A stretch of DNA of 31,951 nt from Candidatus Asbonarchaeum danakilense (GCA_034190465.1 JAXINV010000079.1:1-31951), one strand, 5' to 3'. Positions 2,863 to 23,572 are shown, counted from the first letter of the stretch. The notes: generated by a model not told the origin, from the sequence alone. Numbers and translations are program-made.

Positions 2863-3471
2863 TCACTCCGTGTAGACGCCGACGCCGTCGTACGGCTCTT
2901 CGAGCGGTGTTGTGGAGAAGTTGCCCAGCGCCCACTGCAACCGTTGCTCGTCGCCCGACACCGGGATGGCGTGGATGCGTCCCATGTAGATGCCTGCCGC
3001 GACCTCCTCGGGGTAGAACCTGCTGGTGTTCCTGAGTCCTCTGCCCCAGTAGACCCGCAGATCGCCGCCGTACCTGTCCATGAAGTCCTGATCCGCGTAC
3101 GCTCTGCCGACGAAGGTGCTGTCGGCCGCGTCATACAGGGGGACGACGATCGCTTCGGGGACGCTGTTCGTCGGGTCCAAGGTCCGTGTGACGTTCAGCA
3201 CGACCTGGCCGTCGACGGTCTTTGACCCTATGATCTGCTCGTCGAAGTAGATGCCGTTCGCGAAGAACTGGGTCAGCACAGGGGCGTGGTATTCGAGCGT
3301 GTACGCGCTCTCGAACTCAGCCGTCCCGTTGCCGGCGAGCAGGGTGGCGTTGAGTATTGCTGTACCGTCATGCATCGTCACACCTGGTGTCCCGGTTGTA
3401 CCAGTGCCGCCAAGACAGCCGGCCAGCACTGCCGCCCCGACAAGGACCGTCACAGAGACGCGATCCTCCAT
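2863..3471 (-). CDS. putative lipoprotein / secreted protein
   Basis: ATG 3471 gives MEDRVSVTVLVGAAVLAGC (lipobox LAGC), followed by a Thr/Gly linker and several NxS/T sequons. Confidence 0.7.
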   Translation of the reverse strand: MEDRVSVTVLVGAAVLAGCLGGTGTTGTPGVTMHDGTAILNATLLAGNGTAEFESAYTLEYHAPVLTQFFANGIYFDEQIIGSKTVDGQVVLNVTRTLDPTNSVPEAIVVPLYDAADSTFVGRAYADQDFMDRYGGDLRVYWGRGLRNTSRFYPEEVAAGIYMGRIHAIPVSGDEQRLQWALGNFSTTPLEEPYDGVGVYTE

Positions 3472-7415: not shown

Positions 7416-8930
7416 ATGACTGAGGTCTACAAGAACTTCATCGACGGTGAATGGGTCAAATCAGCTTCTGGCGAAACGTTCAAATCGAAGGAACCCGCCG
7501 ACCGGAGCAAGGTCCTCGGCGAGTTCCAGCGGTCAAATGAGGAGGACGCCCGACGAGCCGTACAGGCGGCTAACGATGCGCAGGAGGAATGGGAGGGCAT
7601 GTCACGCATCGAACGTGCTGAATACCTGGAGGAAGCGTTCAAGATACTGGAGGAACGGACCGACGAGCTGGGCGAGCTTGTCTCCCGTGAATGTGGCAAG
7701 GAACTGTCCGAGGGCAAGGCGGACGTGGTCGAGGCCACGCACATGCTGCAGTACGCGTTCGGCAACGCCCGCCAGCCCACTGGCGAGGTCGTGGAGTCGG
7801 AGATCCCGTCGAAGGACTCCTACGTCCACCGCCAGCCGGTCGGTGTCGTGTCATCGATCACGCCGTGGAACTTCCCGATCGCGATCCCGATCTGGTTGAT
7901 CGCGATCCCGCTGGTGGAGGGCAACACGGTCGTGTTCAAGCCCGCGGAGCAGACTCCGAAGTGTGGTGTCAAGCTGATGGAGGTGTTTGAAGAAGCGGGT
8001 ATCCCGGACGGCGTCATCAACATGATCACCGGTTACGGCGACGCCGGTGCGGAGATGGTCGATGATGAGAATGTTGACTCCGTGCTGTTCACCGGCTCGG
8101 CCCAGGTCGGTGAACAGATCCAGTGCGATGTCGCCGAGCAGGGCGGCAAGCAGTGCGCCTGCGAGATGGGCGGCAAGAACGCGATCATCGTGACGGAGGA
8201 CGCGGACATGGACATCGCGGTGCACTCGGCGATCATGTCGGCGTTCAAGACAACCGGCCAGCGGTGCGTGTCCGCGGAACGACTGATCGTGCACGAGGAC
8301 GTGATCGACGAGTTCCAGGAACGGTTCGTCGCGGCGGCTGAAAAGATCAACTACGGCCACCCTGTGGAGGACAACGTGTTCATGGGTCCGATGGTTGACG
8401 AGGACCAGGTCGAGAAGACGAAGTACTGGAACCAGGTGGTCCGGGACATGGACGCTGCCGAGGTCCTGGTCGACCGCGAGGACGACCTTGATGCCTCCCA
8501 CGAGGACGGCTACTTTGTCGGGCCGTTCGCCTACCGGATGGAGTACGACGAGGACGTGGACGTGCTGCACGATGAGGTCTTCGGCCCGCACGTCGCCCTG
8601 ATGCCGTACAGCGACTTCGATGAGGCGATCGAGATCCACAACTCGGTTGAATATGGCCTGGCGATGGCGATCTGCACGGAGGACTACCGGAAGGCCCGCC
8701 GCGCCCGCCAGGAATGCGAGGTCGGGCTGGGCTACGTCAACCTGCCGTCGATCGGGGCAGAGGTCCACCTGCCGTTCGGCGGTGTGAAGAAGTCCGGCTC
8801 AGGCATCGCGTCCGGCAAGGACATCATCCGCGCTGTGACGCACAGGATGGCCTGGACGGTCAACAACGAGAAGGACATCGAGATGGCCCAGGGCCTGTCC
8901 GCCGACATCTTCCGCGGCAGCGACGACTGA
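7416..8930 (+). CDS. NAD(P)-dependent aldehyde dehydrogenase
   Basis: ITPWNFP, FKPAEQTP, FTGS, EMGGKNA, GQRC (catalytic Cys), EVFGP and PFGGVKKSG motifs. Confidence 0.95.
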   Translation: MTEVYKNFIDGEWVKSASGETFKSKEPADRSKVLGEFQRSNEEDARRAVQAANDAQEEWEGMSRIERAEYLEEAFKILEERTDELGELVSRECGKELSEGKADVVEATHMLQYAFGNARQPTGEVVESEIPSKDSYVHRQPVGVVSSITPWNFPIAIPIWLIAIPLVEGNTVVFKPAEQTPKCGVKLMEVFEEAGIPDGVINMITGYGDAGAEMVDDENVDSVLFTGSAQVGEQIQCDVAEQGGKQCACEMGGKNAIIVTEDADMDIAVHSAIMSAFKTTGQRCVSAERLIVHEDVIDEFQERFVAAAEKINYGHPVEDNVFMGPMVDEDQVEKTKYWNQVVRDMDAAEVLVDREDDLDASHEDGYFVGPFAYRMEYDEDVDVLHDEVFGPHVALMPYSDFDEAIEIHNSVEYGLAMAICTEDYRKARRARQECEVGLGYVNLPSIGAEVHLPFGGVKKSGSGIASGKDIIRAVTHRMAWTVNNEKDIEMAQGLSADIFRGSDD

Positions 8931-8962
8931 CGTCGCTGCCCGTTTCTTCTCTTTTCTCTTTC
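8916..8962 (+). terminator. hairpin over the stop codon followed by a pyrimidine tract
   Basis: GGCAGCGACG-ACTGA-CGTCGCTGCC then TTTCTTCTCTTTTCTCTTT. Confidence 0.6.
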
Positions 8963-17309: not shown

Positions 17310-18815
17310 ATGACTGATGAACAAGAACTCGGTATCACGGTGAGCAAGGACCAAAACATGTCCGACTGGTACACCCAGGTCGTGAAGAAGGCGGAGCTGG
17401 CGGACTACGCGCCGGTGAAGGGCTGCATGGTGATCAGGCCGTACGCCATGGATATCTGGGACCGGTTGAAGGACGTGTTCGACGACTGGATCGAGGACGA
17501 GGTCGATAACGCATACTTCCCGCTGTTCATCCCGGAGTCCTACCTGGAGAAGGAGAAGGACATCGTCGAGGGCTTCGACCCGGAGGTCGCCTGGGTGGAG
17601 AACGCGGGTCAGGATGAAGAGCTTGAGGAACGCCTGGCGGTCAGGCCGACCAGCGAGTCCATCATCGCGCCGTTCATGGCGGACTGGATCCGCAGCCACC
17701 GCGACCTCCCGTTCCGCCTCAATCAGTGGTGCAACGTGGTCCGCTGGGAGGCGACGGACACCCGTCCATTCCTCAGGACCCGCGAGTTCCTCTGGCAGGA
17801 GGGCCACACCGCCCACAAGGATGAGGAGAGCGCGACAGAAGAGGTGATGAAGCGGCTGGACCAGTACGCCCGGCTGTACGAGGACTACCTGGCGATCCCG
17901 GTGCTGAAGGGCCGGAAGCCGGAGCATGACAAGTTCCCTGGCGCGATCGTCACGACGACAGTCGAGTCCCTGATGCCGGACGGGAAGTCGATTCAGGGCG
18001 GGACGTCGCACAACCTGGGCACGAACTTCGCGGAGGCGTTCGACATCGAGTACGAGGACCGCAACCAGGAGAAGCAGTACTGCTACACGTGTTCCTGGGG
18101 GCTGTCGACCCGGGCGCTGGGCGCGCTGATCATGGCGCACGGCGACGACGACGGGCTGGTGCTGCCGCCCGAGGTGGCGCCGACCCAGGTCGTGATCGTG
18201 CCGATCTACCAGGAGGACAACCGTGACGAGGTGCTGGTCTACGCTGACGAGGTCGCTGACCGGCTTGACGGGTTCAGGGTCGAGGTCGACGACCGCGACT
18301 ACAAGACGCCCGGCTTCAAGTTCAACGAACACGAGCTCCGTGGTGTGCCGCTCCGCCTGGAGATCGGTCCCAACGAGGTCGAGGACCAGGTCGTCACGGC
18401 GGCCCGCCGGGACGACGGCAGCCAGGAGGAGCTGGCGCTTGACGGCATCGACGCCGCTGTCGAGGAGCTGCTTGAGGACATCCAGGTCGCGCTGTACGAA
18501 CGCCTGAAGGACTACCGCGACGACCACATCGCTGAGGCGGACAGCTACGAGAAGATCCTGGAGCTGATTGGCCGGCAGCGCGGCTATGTCAAGGCACCGT
18601 GGTGCGGCGATGAGGCCTGCGAGGCGGAGGTCAAGGACCAGGTCCACGCCGAGATCGTGATGGTGCCGTTCGAAGACGAAGATCCGATTTCCGGATCTTC
18701 TGGAAGCACGCGATCTGAAGGATCGGTGCAGGACGAGCAAGAGGAGCTGACCGGCAGCTGCGCCATCTGCGACAAGGACGCAGAGTTCACGGCGTACTTC
18801 GCGAAGAATTACTAG
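17310..18815 (+). CDS. proS: prolyl-tRNA synthetase, archaeal/eukaryotic type
   Basis: WY..VV.KAELADY, RPTSE, LNQWCNVVRWE, PFLRTREFLWQEGHT, QGGTSHNLG, SWGLSTR and the C-terminal C..C...FAKNY. Confidence 0.98.
   Translation: MTDEQELGITVSKDQNMSDWYTQVVKKAELADYAPVKGCMVIRPYAMDIWDRLKDVFDDWIEDEVDNAYFPLFIPESYLEKEKDIVEGFDPEVAWVENAGQDEELEERLAVRPTSESIIAPFMADWIRSHRDLPFRLNQWCNVVRWEATDTRPFLRTREFLWQEGHTAHKDEESATEEVMKRLDQYARLYEDYLAIPVLKGRKPEHDKFPGAIVTTTVESLMPDGKSIQGGTSHNLGTNFAEAFDIEYEDRNQEKQYCYTCSWGLSTRALGALIMAHGDDDGLVLPPEVAPTQVVIVPIYQEDNRDEVLVYADEVADRLDGFRVEVDDRDYKTPGFKFNEHELRGVPLRLEIGPNEVEDQVVTAARRDDGSQEELALDGIDAAVEELLEDIQVALYERLKDYRDDHIAEADSYEKILELIGRQRGYVKAPWCGDEACEAEVKDQVHAEIVMVPFEDEDPISGSSGSTRSEGSVQDEQEELTGSCAICDKDAEFTAYFAKNY
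18675..18736. repeat. 57-nt two-hairpin palindromic element in frame within proS
   Basis: GACGA direct repeats 57 nt apart enclose GAAGATCCG-ATTTC-CGGATCTTC and GCAC(G)CGATC-TGAAG-GATCGGTGC. Confidence 0.65.
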
Positions 18816-18985
18816 CGTAATTCTTCAGTTCCTCCGTCCGTCGCCGGACTCCGGTTGCCAAGAACTACTAGCGTAGTTCTTGTCTGCCCCTCACAACCTC
18901 CGGTAGCTCGGTTGCGAAAAACTACTGACGTAGTTTTTCATTTTCTCACGCGCCAGTGGCGGGTTCGGTCGCGAAGAACTACTGG
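18801..18985. repeat. tandem array of palindromic repeats copying the proS 3' end (period 56/57/57)
   Basis: Copies at 18801, 18857, 18914 and 18971. The first three are perfect 10-bp hairpins separated by about 30-nt variable spacers that end in CGGTY. Confidence 0.9.
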
Positions 18986-19089
18986 TGGGCTGGCCGCCCG
19001 TCGATCTGTTTTTTCTCTTTCCTGACAGCTGTGACGACGCATCGGCCGCTGCCGACATCCTTTAAAATCTCGGTGCCCGGTTGTGACGT

Positions 19090-19755
19090 ATGACTGACGA
19101 TATGCTGACCGGTGAGGAGCGCCGGTACCGGGAGTTCATGGCCGACGTGTTTGTCGGCCTTGAGGCGGACGATATCGAACCGTACGAGCACGATCAGCTG
19201 CGGATCGAGTACGGCGACGGCAGCAAACGGTACACATTGACACAGGAGGACTTCGACGAGATCACCGGCGACATGCTGGACGACGCACTCGAGCGGTACC
19301 ACGAGGACGGCGACGATGCACCGGAGCCGGAAGCGGTCGCAGCGCTGGCGGAGGCCCACACCGCCCGCGACGACCTGCCGACCGAGGACGAGCTCGAGGA
19401 GTGGCGTGACCCGGTCGAGGACATGCGTGTCGCGCTGACATCGACGACCGGGTTCAACGTCGCGGAGTACGTCGACGACTCGAAGTACGACGACTGGCAG
19501 GACGGAGGCCTGGACGCGTTCCTCGATTATCCCGACGAGACCGACGAGTTCGACGGCTTTCGGGACTGGTACGACCAGACGGTGCGGAACCTGGAGCTGA
19601 TGGACTACGACGAGCCGGAGCGGATCCTGACCGAGATCGCCAACCTGCCGTACGACGAGCCGGTCCACGATGTGCCGGACCGGTCGGTGACGGCGAAGGT
19701 GCAGGCCGCGGTGTCGTCGCTTCTCAGCGGCGGTGAACGCGTCGGCCCGGCGTAG
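19090..19755 (+). CDS. highly acidic hypothetical protein
   Basis: 221-aa ORF. TTTAAAA at 19061-19067 (leaderless start). Confidence 0.75.
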   Translation: MTDDMLTGEERRYREFMADVFVGLEADDIEPYEHDQLRIEYGDGSKRYTLTQEDFDEITGDMLDDALERYHEDGDDAPEPEAVAALAEAHTARDDLPTEDELEEWRDPVEDMRVALTSTTGFNVAEYVDDSKYDDWQDGGLDAFLDYPDETDEFDGFRDWYDQTVRNLELMDYDEPERILTEIANLPYDEPVHDVPDRSVTAKVQAAVSSLLSGGERVGPA

Positions 19756-20782: not shown

Positions 20783-23572
20783 ATGAAGACTGTCAACGAG
20801 TACCAGGACAATCCGGAGGCACGTTACCAAAAAGAGTTCGAATGGCTCAAACAGGGGGATGAACTAGACTCGCGCTACCTGGCCGAGGAATTCGACATCA
20901 GTCCGAGCACCGCCAGGGAGGATCTTTCCGCGCTCAGTGACCGGCTTGGCCTGGAACCGGAACGCGGCGATCACGGCCGCCACGTCTATTCGCTGCCGGT
21001 CGACGATCCGGGCTACCTGGAGAAGTCTGAGGTCCGTGAGGCGGACGATATTGCCAACTACCTCTTCGGCGAGGCCTCCGGCATGCACCGCGATCTGAAC
21101 AACGATGAATGGGAGGAGAAGGAATCCATGACCCTGCTCACCATGTCGGAGCTGGGCTGGGGCACGAAGTTCAGCAGCGAGGAGGCCGTCGACGCGCTCG
21201 CGTACAAACTTGAGGAGAAGATCGATGCCGACGAACTCGACCCCGACGAGAACTTCGGCATCGTGATGAACGGCGGCGTGCTTCCCCGCATCTCGAAGTG
21301 GAACTACAAGACCGCCCGCCACGCCTACCGCGCCCTCGCGGAGTGGGAGGAGAACGAGTCGGACTCCACCGTCGAGGAGCTACGTGATACCGACCAGCTT
21401 GCAGAATACCTTGAGGACGAAAACATCCCGGACGATCCGGAGGAACGGGAGGAGTTCCTGGCTGGTGTCCAGGAGAAGATGGATGAGGTTCTCGACGGCA
21501 ACGAGAACATGCTCACCAACCTGCAGGAGGCCAGCGAGTACGCAGAAGCCCAGGTGGACAAGATCTACGACGCGCTTGGGGCGGAAGCAGATCTCTACAT
21601 GCACATGGGCGAGCAGGACGAGGCCAACATCGAGGACATGGAGGAGCTGAAGATCCAGGAGCTGACCGACGAGGTCGAGGACCGGATGGAGACGCTGCAG
21701 GAGAAGATCGATTCGCGGAACGACATGCTCCAGACGATGTCCCGTGAACTGGCAGACCTCGAGGGCGAACAGTACGACGAGGTCCGGGAGGAGATCGAGG
21801 AACACCTCGCGAACGACCGGGACCCCCGTGAACTGGAGCTCGAGGACTACGATATCGACAGCAGCGACCTGGAGACGTACGAGGAAGCACTTGAGGAACA
21901 GGAAGACCTCATCAAGGAGATCCGAGAGATGGAGCACAACCGGAACGCGATGCTCGTCGAGAAGGCGTTCGGCGAGGCAGCGGACTGGGGCAACCGGAAG
22001 TACCTTCCACCGGACAAGTCCGTACTGGCCCGCAAGCTTGCGGAGCTGGAGTACGAGGAGTACTACCACCAGATCGGCAACGTCGAGGAGGTGGACCGCG
22101 AATCTGACGTTACACGGTTCGACGTCGGCGGGTTCACGGTCGATCTGGCGCACAAGCTCCACTACACGAATACACCGCTCAAGACCGGGTTCAAGAAGGA
22201 GAAACGGAAGTACAAGGACCGTCAGGACGAGGAGGCCGACCTGTTCCTCACCGGCCACCACGGCCCGTTCAAGGCGCAGCAGTTCGTCCACGGCCGGGGC
22301 GAAGACGAGAACGACCACACCTGGATGGTCCAGCTATCAACGTTCATGGACCCTGAGAAACTGGAGGAAAACGGACTGGAGGAAGGCCTGACCCAGCTGC
22401 AGGACGTGAAGCGGATGGGCAAGGGCTTGTTCGACTCCACGGTCTCACTGATCAACATGACGGTCGAGGAAGGTCCTGACGGCGAGCTGCGGAAGCGGTT
22501 CAACGTTGAGGGCTGGGACGGCGAATACCTGAAGCGGCTGGGTGAACAGCTGAACGGTGAGAAGGTGCCGGGCAAGGACTTCGCCGACACGGATGACCGA
22601 CAGCACGTTGTCGCCCGTGGCGACGACCAGATCGGCGCCCAGCACGATATGGAATACATCTACGAACCGCTGACCGAGGAGGTCATCGCCGAGGACTTCC
22701 ACAACATCGATGAGTGGATGGACGGCCTCGAGGGCGACGCGACCGTGATCGAGGTCGGGGACGCGTTCCAGGGTACCGATGTCTACGATGGTCAGCAGCA
22801 GGAGGGCTCGATGTACCTCGGGATGGAGGAGCTCGACCTGAAGTCGGCGATCATCTCGGTGTTCGAGGACGAGGATGTCGAGTTCGAGTCCAAGGACGAG
22901 TTCTACGATTTCCTCCAGGAGACCGACCTTAGCTCAGAGACGCAGATGGCGCTGGACTATGCTGATCACCGCGACAAGCGCCAGGTCCCGGTCAACAACA
23001 TCGCGAAGCAGGGCGAGCTGGTCGAGGAGCTCTTGGTCGACAACTACGAGGAACTGATCGACCGCGGCGCTGATATGATCATCGTGGACGGCAACCACTA
23101 CAACGACAACCTGGACGGCCTCAGTGAGTCGGAGCGGTTGCTGGAGATCTTTGACTCGGAGTACCACGATGAGATCCGCACCGGTGACGGCAACGGTGAC
23201 GGCGACGGCACGTTCTACCTGGAGGGGGAGGACGGTGAGACGCTCCAGGTCCGGGCTAAGCACAGGCCGACAGGTTACGGCGCTGAGACGGTCGACAAGC
23301 TGCTGGACCAGGCGGTGGAGCAGGACACTGACCTTTTCGTCGCAGGCCACCTGCATGTCCCGTCGTTCGGCAAGCAGAACGATCTGATGGCGATGATGCC
23401 GGGATCGGCCCAGGCGACGAACGATTTCGTGAAGGGCTTCACCGATGCGCCGGCCGAGAAGGGCGCGGTCTACCTGTCGATGCCCAGTGACCCGGATAAG
23501 AAGGAGTTCGAGTTCGAGCATGTGTCGGTCAAGGGCCTGAACCCGCTGACAGGAGCTGCCGACGAGGAGTAA
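20783..23572 (+). CDS. wHTH + coiled coil + tandem calcineurin-like metallophosphoesterase protein
   Basis: N-terminal LDSRYLAEEFDISPSTAREDLSAL (DeoR-like HTH). Degenerate domain 1: MSELGWG, NGGVLP, MGEQD, LAHK, TGHHG. Domain 2: GDDQIG, VGDAFQG, DGNHY, AKH, AGHLH. Confidence 0.7.
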   Translation: MKTVNEYQDNPEARYQKEFEWLKQGDELDSRYLAEEFDISPSTAREDLSALSDRLGLEPERGDHGRHVYSLPVDDPGYLEKSEVREADDIANYLFGEASGMHRDLNNDEWEEKESMTLLTMSELGWGTKFSSEEAVDALAYKLEEKIDADELDPDENFGIVMNGGVLPRISKWNYKTARHAYRALAEWEENESDSTVEELRDTDQLAEYLEDENIPDDPEEREEFLAGVQEKMDEVLDGNENMLTNLQEASEYAEAQVDKIYDALGAEADLYMHMGEQDEANIEDMEELKIQELTDEVEDRMETLQEKIDSRNDMLQTMSRELADLEGEQYDEVREEIEEHLANDRDPRELELEDYDIDSSDLETYEEALEEQEDLIKEIREMEHNRNAMLVEKAFGEAADWGNRKYLPPDKSVLARKLAELEYEEYYHQIGNVEEVDRESDVTRFDVGGFTVDLAHKLHYTNTPLKTGFKKEKRKYKDRQDEEADLFLTGHHGPFKAQQFVHGRGEDENDHTWMVQLSTFMDPEKLEENGLEEGLTQLQDVKRMGKGLFDSTVSLINMTVEEGPDGELRKRFNVEGWDGEYLKRLGEQLNGEKVPGKDFADTDDRQHVVARGDDQIGAQHDMEYIYEPLTEEVIAEDFHNIDEWMDGLEGDATVIEVGDAFQGTDVYDGQQQEGSMYLGMEELDLKSAIISVFEDEDVEFESKDEFYDFLQETDLSSETQMALDYADHRDKRQVPVNNIAKQGELVEELLVDNYEELIDRGADMIIVDGNHYNDNLDGLSESERLLEIFDSEYHDEIRTGDGNGDGDGTFYLEGEDGETLQVRAKHRPTGYGAETVDKLLDQAVEQDTDLFVAGHLHVPSFGKQNDLMAMMPGSAQATNDFVKGFTDAPAEKGAVYLSMPSDPDKKEFEFEHVSVKGLNPLTGAADEE

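Follow-up and report, generated by a model that had tools for sequence, protein, structure and literature searches.

The 3' end of the prolyl-tRNA synthetase gene (proS) of Candidatus Asbonarchaeum danakilense is followed by an array of gene-end copies, which probably represents three non-autonomous mobile cassettes (units A, B and C) lying ahead of the ancestral proS end (copy D). The array is real and polymorphic, and it is part of an apparently undescribed group of tiny hairpin cassettes that replace gene ends. These cassettes belong to a family of small double hairpins, which is spread through the order of nanohaloarchaea. The window analysed, contig C16 of the genome referred to as G000 (GCA_034190465.1, JAXINV010000079.1:1-31951), comprises 31,951 nt; the genome of 1.2 Mb has 61% GC, is 92% complete, encodes acidic proteins and is present in salt-lake runs.

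Anatomy of the proS 3' end

The proS product matched TIGR00408 with 564 bits at a cut-off of 437, and its ProRS-C_1 domain runs to the very last residue, which implies that position 18815 is the true 3' end of the gene. Four copies of the gene end, the first beginning at 18801 and the others spaced 56, 57 and 57 nt apart, were recounted, reading AKNY-stop, AKNY-stop, AKNY-stop and AKNYW (Table 1); this is what the initial annotation had stated. In each of units A to C, hairpin 1 is a perfect 10-bp stem with the stop codon within a 4-nt loop. Its left arm repeats the four terminal codons of the gene in synonymous form, its right arm is complementary to the left, and beyond it come a linker and another, small hairpin. 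Three stem columns are variable, every one of them a third codon position that is altered on both arms, so that the mirrored differences described before were all recovered as compensated. Across five units from two species, 49 of 50 cells were paired, the covariation score was reached by none of 500 shuffles, and nearly all pairs of the array stems are Watson-Crick. The folding z-score was -3.55 for the region and -3.9 to -4.6 for units A-C, with copy D at 0.05.

Table 1. Coordinates of the features discussed; positions refer to the window unless a contig or locus is named.
Feature	Position	Strand	Remarks
proS	17310..18815	+	archaeal-type prolyl-tRNA synthetase; ends in YFAKNY and stop
In-frame double-hairpin insertion in proS	18677..18740	+	net +57 nt, 19 codons; z -5.3
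Unit A	18801..18856	+	working gene end 18801-18815; hairpin 18803-18826
Unit A, distal part			small second hairpin ~18837-18848; end motif CGGTT
Unit B	18857..18913	+	displaced synonymous end; hairpin 18859-18882; weak second hairpin
Unit C	18914..18970	+	displaced synonymous end; hairpin 18916-18939; second hairpin ~18948-18964
Copy D	18971..18985	+	decayed gene end, read as the oldest; stop changed to TGG
Terminator-like hairpin 18983-19003 and T-rich tract	18983..19020	+	bacterial-type rule, pattern scan only
SDR array, four copies	G000 C9:39474-39650		
Thermosome array, three copies	G000 C11:9040-9200		
Parvulin array, three copies	G000 C11:28510-28690		
Unknown-gene array, three copies	G000 C76, around 1226	-	
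Double hairpins in both end palindromes of an IS200/IS605 element	L107:1370-1410, 2915-2970		

That the spacers differ and carry hairpins of their own, as claimed initially, was found for A and C, but the second hairpin of B has only 3-4 bp, and the spacers of A and C are related. Spacer similarity within G000 was p = 0.16 for A-B, 0.07 for B-C and 0.006 for A-C (a weak alignment). The spacers are thus too dissimilar for a recent tandem duplication. No other occurrence of the proS array motif was found in the 1.2-Mb genome.

The hairpin and T tract (the latter at 19009-19020) behind copy D are probably the ancestral proS transcription end, as judged from their sequence pattern. Since the array lies upstream of the T tract, it is probably transcribed. 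The gene right after proS (19090-19755) encodes an acidic 221-aa protein without a Pfam or NCBIfam match, and it is kept in the sister species, G001.

The array in other samples and relatives

Positions 18588-19500 were spanned with 0 substitutions by single contigs of run X1, the possible source run, and run X2, another sample of the same study. A chimera of assembly or strain variants, raised at the outset, is ruled out by the unchanged array in the contig of the second sample, both contigs being short-read ones.

The proS end of G001 has three copies. Its first unit was identified as the orthologue of B (26 of 33 spacer positions identical) and its second as the orthologue of A (22 of 30), each with 0 of 500 shuffles reaching the match, whereas spacers at the same position in the two species aligned poorly (p = 0.11 and 0.02). 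With B and A at positions 1 and 2 of G001, the A/B order is swapped between the species, and the orthologue of unit B is the working proS end there. In a contig of run X4, which stems from a relative in another study and shows 28 differences in 688 aligned bases compared with the window, an extra unit precedes A and unit C is missing. By eye, the extra spacer is identical at 23 of 27 positions to the first spacer of G001 and at 21 of 27 to that of C. At the position equivalent to D, both the X4 contig and G001 have a stop codon. Whole units have been gained, lost and reordered at this gene end; neither copy number nor order is fixed among related proS 3' regions, the comparison that had been proposed as a check.

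A covariance model of the proS unit gave 12 matches in 8 of 70 genomes, from three families, all of them at proS ends (at most 78 candidates scored per genome). Second copies were detected in relatives at 10 of 48 proS, 7 of 31 parvulin and 6 of 28 thermosome ends among the loci listed, with false-positive rates of the search of 1.7%, 0.3% and 0.2%, respectively. Thirteen extra matches to the AKNY-stop pattern in relatives turned out to be chance coding matches, and two others were proS ends.

Arrays at other gene ends and tRNAs

The phenomenon is not confined to proS: arrays were found at 5 of the 1,296 predicted protein-gene ends of G000, namely proS, parvulin, thermosome, SDR and one gene on C76, and also at tRNA ends. 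The SDR array is the sole result taken from a loose genome-wide scan for the architecture, which was noisy (33 real versus 17 shuffled matches). The layout is common to all: gene end, loop, inverted arm, linker, small hairpin and gene end again. Together with the variation in copy number and content at proS, these comparable elements uphold the earlier suggestion of a tiny element that inserts repeatedly. Related cassettes sit at one and the same gene end across genera and families with unrelated upstream codons.

Repeats of the 3' end were seen for 14 of the 32 G000 tRNA calls with a recognisable T loop, two of them across N gaps; the copies begin at the T loop. A nearly identical core lies behind different tRNAs, flanked in each case by the end of that tRNA, which implies that the host served as the template for the target-specific part, at least when a site was first colonised. 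Members of the same family also occur in the long introns of many G000 tRNAs, and many contigs end at these tRNA sites. On L207 (near 1500-1560) and L274, the sequence behind a tRNA-Pro cassette is the 3' end of another tRNA, reflecting either recombination between cassettes at two tRNAs or misassembly.

The wider hairpin family and its insertion sites

The second-hairpin motif GAARATCTYYGATYTTC was matched 265 times in 51 of the 70 genomes, with 0 matches for the reversed control; its R and Y positions covary in 148 of 150 cases among the matches listed, and among the genomes searched it is missing from whole genera (g5, g16 and g24) and from G030, while G026, G031, G036, G042 and G049 are rich in it. 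Matches lie within tRNA introns, downstream of tRNAs and of parvulin, and in free double hairpins located within genes. Family-shaped hairpins numbered 58, compared with 10-14 in shuffles, and double hairpins 51, compared with 11-15. Family members are double hairpins of 52-74 nt. The G000 proS spacers, in which the exact GAARATC..GATYTTC motif does not occur, form a subfamily without exact GAARATCTYYGATYTTC; what would tie the proS units to the wider family is their size, their layout and a hairpin 1 of GAARA..TYTTC shape.

Free members of the same size were found at other hairpin sites. One lies within proS itself, where the first hairpin of the in-frame insertion (18678-18700) is of the GAARA..TYTTC family; the insertion lengthens the C-terminal domain of ProRS by 19 residues and is absent from G001 and X4. 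In an IS200/IS605 element, double hairpins of 57 and 56 nt occupy the left and right end palindromes; both ends are filled in G049 and empty in G047, this being one element only, and its insertions are family relatives, not proS units. The target duplication at two filled/empty sites was 0-3 nt, hence of no fixed length, and the unit ends are not inverted repeats, as was found on comparison with MITEs.

Among 229 gene ends with a T tract, 25 had a stop-spanning hairpin whose arm is perfect over 6 bp or more, compared with 1.1% in a swap control; a stop-spanning hairpin before the T tract is a general host feature and possibly a nanohaloarchaeal type of terminator. All observed targets, gene ends included, are therefore hairpins. 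The proS and parvulin ends encode the GAARA start, and the SDR end encodes the RCA start of a second subfamily, which may explain why these genes would have been colonised.

The normality of stop-spanning hairpins in these genomes also favours an explanation that dispenses with dedicated mobility. According to it, the unit was born once, by template switching or a generic hairpin insertion, and unequal recombination between the 12-25 nt copies then lengthened and shortened the arrays; divergent front ends were imported with foreign proS alleles, using long homology on one side and microhomology on the other, and arm pairing was kept by template-switch correction and selection on the terminator hairpin. 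Template switching is described, in the cited sections, as creating and repairing stems in one step (PMC8794818), the spacers of one array are partly related, and no enzyme was found. We nevertheless consider this explanation unlikely, because related cassettes occur at the same gene end in other genera and families next to unrelated upstream codons, the unit length at proS is nearly constant (55-62 nt) over unrelated spacer families, one sequence-conserved second hairpin is common to tRNA, parvulin, thermosome and in-gene sites, and the filled/empty sites of 56-57 nt are clean, without long homology.

Copies as former working gene ends

Between adjacent copies, 80 synonymous and 15 non-synonymous differences were counted (23 arrays; p at most 1e-18; the count pools related genomes, which are not independent), compared with 28-40% synonymous differences expected for a decaying identical duplicate. 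The ratio was 32:11 in G000 alone (p = 6e-7), including an out-of-register last SDR pair that contributes one synonymous and six non-synonymous differences, and 7:1 in its proS array (p = 0.005). The last copy takes part in every one of the 15 non-synonymous differences; for inner pairs the ratio is 21:0. Several decayed copies below threshold were left uncounted (proS of G011, G025, G033 and G058; parvulin of G029; thermosome of G001, G015 and G026), so that non-synonymous decay may be understated. A thermosome pair on L179, with 0 differences across an N gap, is probably an assembly duplicate. Adjacent proS copies differed at 2.4 synonymous sites, compared with 2.7 for the ends of unrelated genomes. 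At 53 of 54 discriminating sites, arms agreed with their own copy and not with the following one, a result favoured by the location of arms via the best match to their own copy.

These counts, together with the use of the B orthologue as the working end in G001, bear out the proposal that each copy was once the working proS end. The second unit of G000 corresponds to the working end of G001 for thermosome (35 of 37 nt), parvulin (21 of 30 nt), SDR (by eye) and proS, which implies that new units are mostly added gene-proximally; inner losses or reshuffling happen alongside. Of the polarised record envisaged initially, the overall polarity was retained, since only distal copies decay, and strict chronology was not, since A and B are swapped and one relative is without the inner unit C.

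Some pairs are identical or nearly so, with 0 differences for parvulin in G011, two in G048 and one between the first two C76 copies; they fit a templated duplication and count against a pure carry-in model. In such a duplication, a generic element made up of linker and second hairpin would copy the host end as a long target duplication, together with an inverted arm, at insertion, with later divergence. It would also suit the tRNA arrays, in which repeats of each tRNA's end, at times with some bases trailing it, surround a common core, and the arms that follow lineage-specific residues, as in G025, where the arm tracks a K-to-R change of the gene and thus indicates that arms also evolve along with the gene at the site. 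Its prediction, however, is a majority of non-synonymous differences, whereas the opposite, 80:15, was seen, and the opposite order of A and B in two species is inexplicable by it. We conclude that templated duplication as the sole process at protein genes is largely refuted, and as an account of the array it is quite improbable, yet it may give birth to a site-adapted cassette, though it does not describe most arrays at protein genes. Of the two routes offered initially, a replacement tail brought in by the element fits protein genes better than a templated duplicate.

Search for a mobilising enzyme and viral carriers

No Y1 transposase, TnpB, reverse transcriptase, IS110 or Cas1 was found in the 92% complete G000 genome, and no integrase in 14 regions behind proS, so that the resident Y1/HUH transposase or integrase which the initial annotation had suggested looking for did not turn up in these places. 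In the order, Y1 is present in 4 of 70 genomes, within IS200/IS605-type elements. Weak integrase-profile matches near proS in several relatives were traced to the reverse strand of a DEAD-box helicase gene, and a GIY-YIG match in G000 is UvrC. The sole tyrosine recombinase of G000 (457 aa, with a C-terminal cysteine-rich region) is encoded on contig C45 (L050) beside two cdc6/orc1-like genes, in a locus that looks like an integrative element. Reading the N-termini of the genes flanking 34 G000 hairpin sites revealed no recurring candidate enzyme.

Scans of virus and metagenome collections for the proS hairpin or doublet (19 and 35 loci) yielded, among the matches listed, AT-rich chance matches without proS, and 35 viral matches to the second-hairpin motif were devoid of the cassette architecture. 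Two further viral patterns, one of them the spacer consensus, had 0 matches. In these scans, no virus was seen to carry the units, nor was a circular form of them encountered. A search for viral ProRS gave a single match, a contig of a viral collection (L290:5001-5462) that encodes a distant relative (29%) of the ProRS C-terminal part.

The failure to find a transposase, a nearby integrase, a reverse transcriptase or Cas1 counts against mobility of the cassettes, whereas the synonymous excess, the swapped A/B order, the filled/empty sites and the motif GAARATCTYYGATYTTC count for it. Alternatively, the units might be what remains of the att sites of larger integrative elements, be they viruses, plasmids or islands, that regenerated the proS end on integrating there and later lost their core. 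Like att duplications, the tRNA copies start at the T loop, tyrosine recombinases are encoded in 43 of the 70 genomes of the order, and 52-bp terminal-only IS605 remnants exist in Haloquadratum; partial tRNA duplications derived from integration are a general occurrence according to the cited sections (PMC9897764, PMC3119063). We regard this origin as very improbable, given that no distant second copy with intervening genes was found (the 13 extra pattern matches checked being due to chance), that the 14 regions behind proS contain no integrase, that IS605 ends of the order bear hairpins other than those of the cassettes, and that units of constant length with covarying arms, at 19 or more different targets within a single genome, misfit site-specific integrases.

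A host-selected 3' untranslated structure (for exosome protection or alternative termination) or a CRISPR-like memory array is hardly credible: the probable transcription ahead of the T tract, the exosome core genes located in the window and the still perfect inner hairpins would suit it, but a second copy is missing from 38 of the 48 proS ends inspected, the stability of an RNA does not call for synonymous codons in copies that are not translated, the stems consist almost entirely of Watson-Crick pairs, and neither Cas1 in G000 nor a match of the array in Rfam or of the spacer consensus in viruses was found.

Proposed mechanism

In the cassette reading, a unit would move as a folded single-stranded DNA, which is probably circular. 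Hairpin 1 would provide the homology to the target, its arm pairing in cis with its own copy and in trans with the resident gene end, while a protein supplied in trans would recognise the conserved second hairpin. Upon insertion at the start of the homologous codons, the gene would gain the end carried by the cassette, and the old end would be pushed downstream, where it would decay. Site-adapted cassettes may have originated from a generic element that captured the stop-spanning terminator hairpin of a gene. Considering the identical pairs, the tRNA core with target-specific ends and the G025 arm, new site-adapted cassettes are probably created by host templating, and template switching may help keep the stems perfect.

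The specific guide-arm step is advanced tentatively, with doubt prevailing. It is likewise possible, if somewhat doubtful, that single-stranded cassettes of ~57 nt are the smallest self-targeting mobile DNAs, in which one hairpin would be a constant handle for a nuclease or recombinase and the other a programmable guide of 10-25 nt combined with the replacement end.

Comparison with known systems

Integration that regenerates a gene end is exemplified by phage 21 and e14 at icd. tRNA-integrating islands and prophages regenerate the 3' end of their target gene, and such integrative elements, as described in the cited sections, likewise keep a working end, displace the old end downstream, carry synonymous copies, target conserved genes and accrete in tandem (PMC9897764, PMC3119063). 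Unlike them, the cassettes are units of 52-74 nt without integrase or cargo between copies, hold the replacement end in a hairpin with a covarying arm, and reach many unrelated targets with one family.

SMR-A of Haloquadratum walsbyi is ~110 bp long with terminal inverted repeats (PMC3119063). According to the cited part of that source, SMR-A and terminal-only PATEs are also free of transposase, without clear target duplication, unexplained in their mobilisation and hypersaline, and insertion into near-terminal palindromes of IS605 is shared by SMR-A and relatives within the cassette family (PMC3119063). Compared by description, the cassettes differ as tandem double hairpins of 56-57 nt, and gene-end replacement with stacking at tRNA and protein-gene ends is not described for SMR-A or PATEs in the cited part (PMC3119063).

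REP, BIME and REPIN repeats, CGTC-tagged repeats and RPE resemble the cassettes, as far as the cited sections describe them, in being short palindromes with covarying stems, often dimers, downstream of genes (PMC3733652, PMC6006769, PMC2229807); MJRE, as cited in PMC2229807, is grouped there with REP-like short palindromic repeats. REP-type repeats sometimes supply a stop codon and insert in frame, and CGTC repeats have no known transposase in the cited account (PMC3733652). Many dispersed short palindromes with covarying stems were found here as well. No unpaired GTAG/GGAG or CGTC tag was seen at the hairpin foot, GTAG occurring only inside the stems of B and C, and G000 has no Y1 HUH transposase gene of the REPIN-RAYT kind. 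Unlike in REP types, hairpin 1 of the cassettes is target-specific and encodes the host C-terminus, and several copies pile up at a single site; for REP-type repeats, the cited sections describe no stacks of cassettes that encode their target (PMC3733652).

A possible working analogy is offered by IS200/IS605 elements, which transpose as single strands with guide sequences; in the cited sections, the protein binds a hairpin while bases of the element pair with the cleavage or target site (PMC3201880). The putative guide of the cassettes would have 10-13 nt and be site-specific, compared with a tetranucleotide in IS200/IS605. Integron cassettes, as far as their published outline goes, may provide a further analogy, with addition at the first position, reordering and folded single-strand att sites. 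A folded single-strand attP is also known for CTX phage. Unlike in both systems, no TnpA or IntI was found and the cassettes have no ORF. The boxes of attC sites follow the consensus RYYYAAC...GTTRRRY; they are absent from the array, and the tyrosine recombinase lies on another contig.

The likeness to CRISPR arrays suggested initially does not extend beyond geometry, that is, a regular period, a palindromic repeat-like part and apparent polarity. Unlike in CRISPR, the 'repeat' is a recoded host gene end, variable between copies at third positions, and the spacers are structured and homologous to each other and between species. No description of such cassettes was found in the open-access literature searched.

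Significance

The cassettes apparently represent a class of mobile DNA that has not been described before and has no protein of its own; it occurs in a DPANN lineage with streamlined genomes, where it enters essential genes and tRNAs without harm. The conserved motif in 51 of 70 genomes, the filled/empty pairs and the ordered arrays are handles for hunting the missing enzyme, and they may shed light on the as yet unexplained movement of small mobile repeats in haloarchaea and of CGTC-type repeats. In practical terms, the units account for unusual in-frame insertions in these genomes, for their long tRNA introns and for assemblies that break at tRNAs. That a categorically new arm-guided insertion system lies behind the array is conceivable but on balance doubtful. 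If the arm is a guide, a compact DNA-programmed insertion chemistry would be indicated; if the cassettes are the smallest self-targeting DNAs, scarless homology-directed insertion at chosen gene ends and a record of past gene-end alleles would follow.

Two further features of the window were noted. Positions 20783-23572 encode a 929-aa protein with weak matches only, to an N-terminal HTH and a C-terminal metallophosphoesterase. At 8916-8940, a perfect 10-bp hairpin with a T-rich tract behind it has the stop codon of an aldehyde dehydrogenase gene in its loop.
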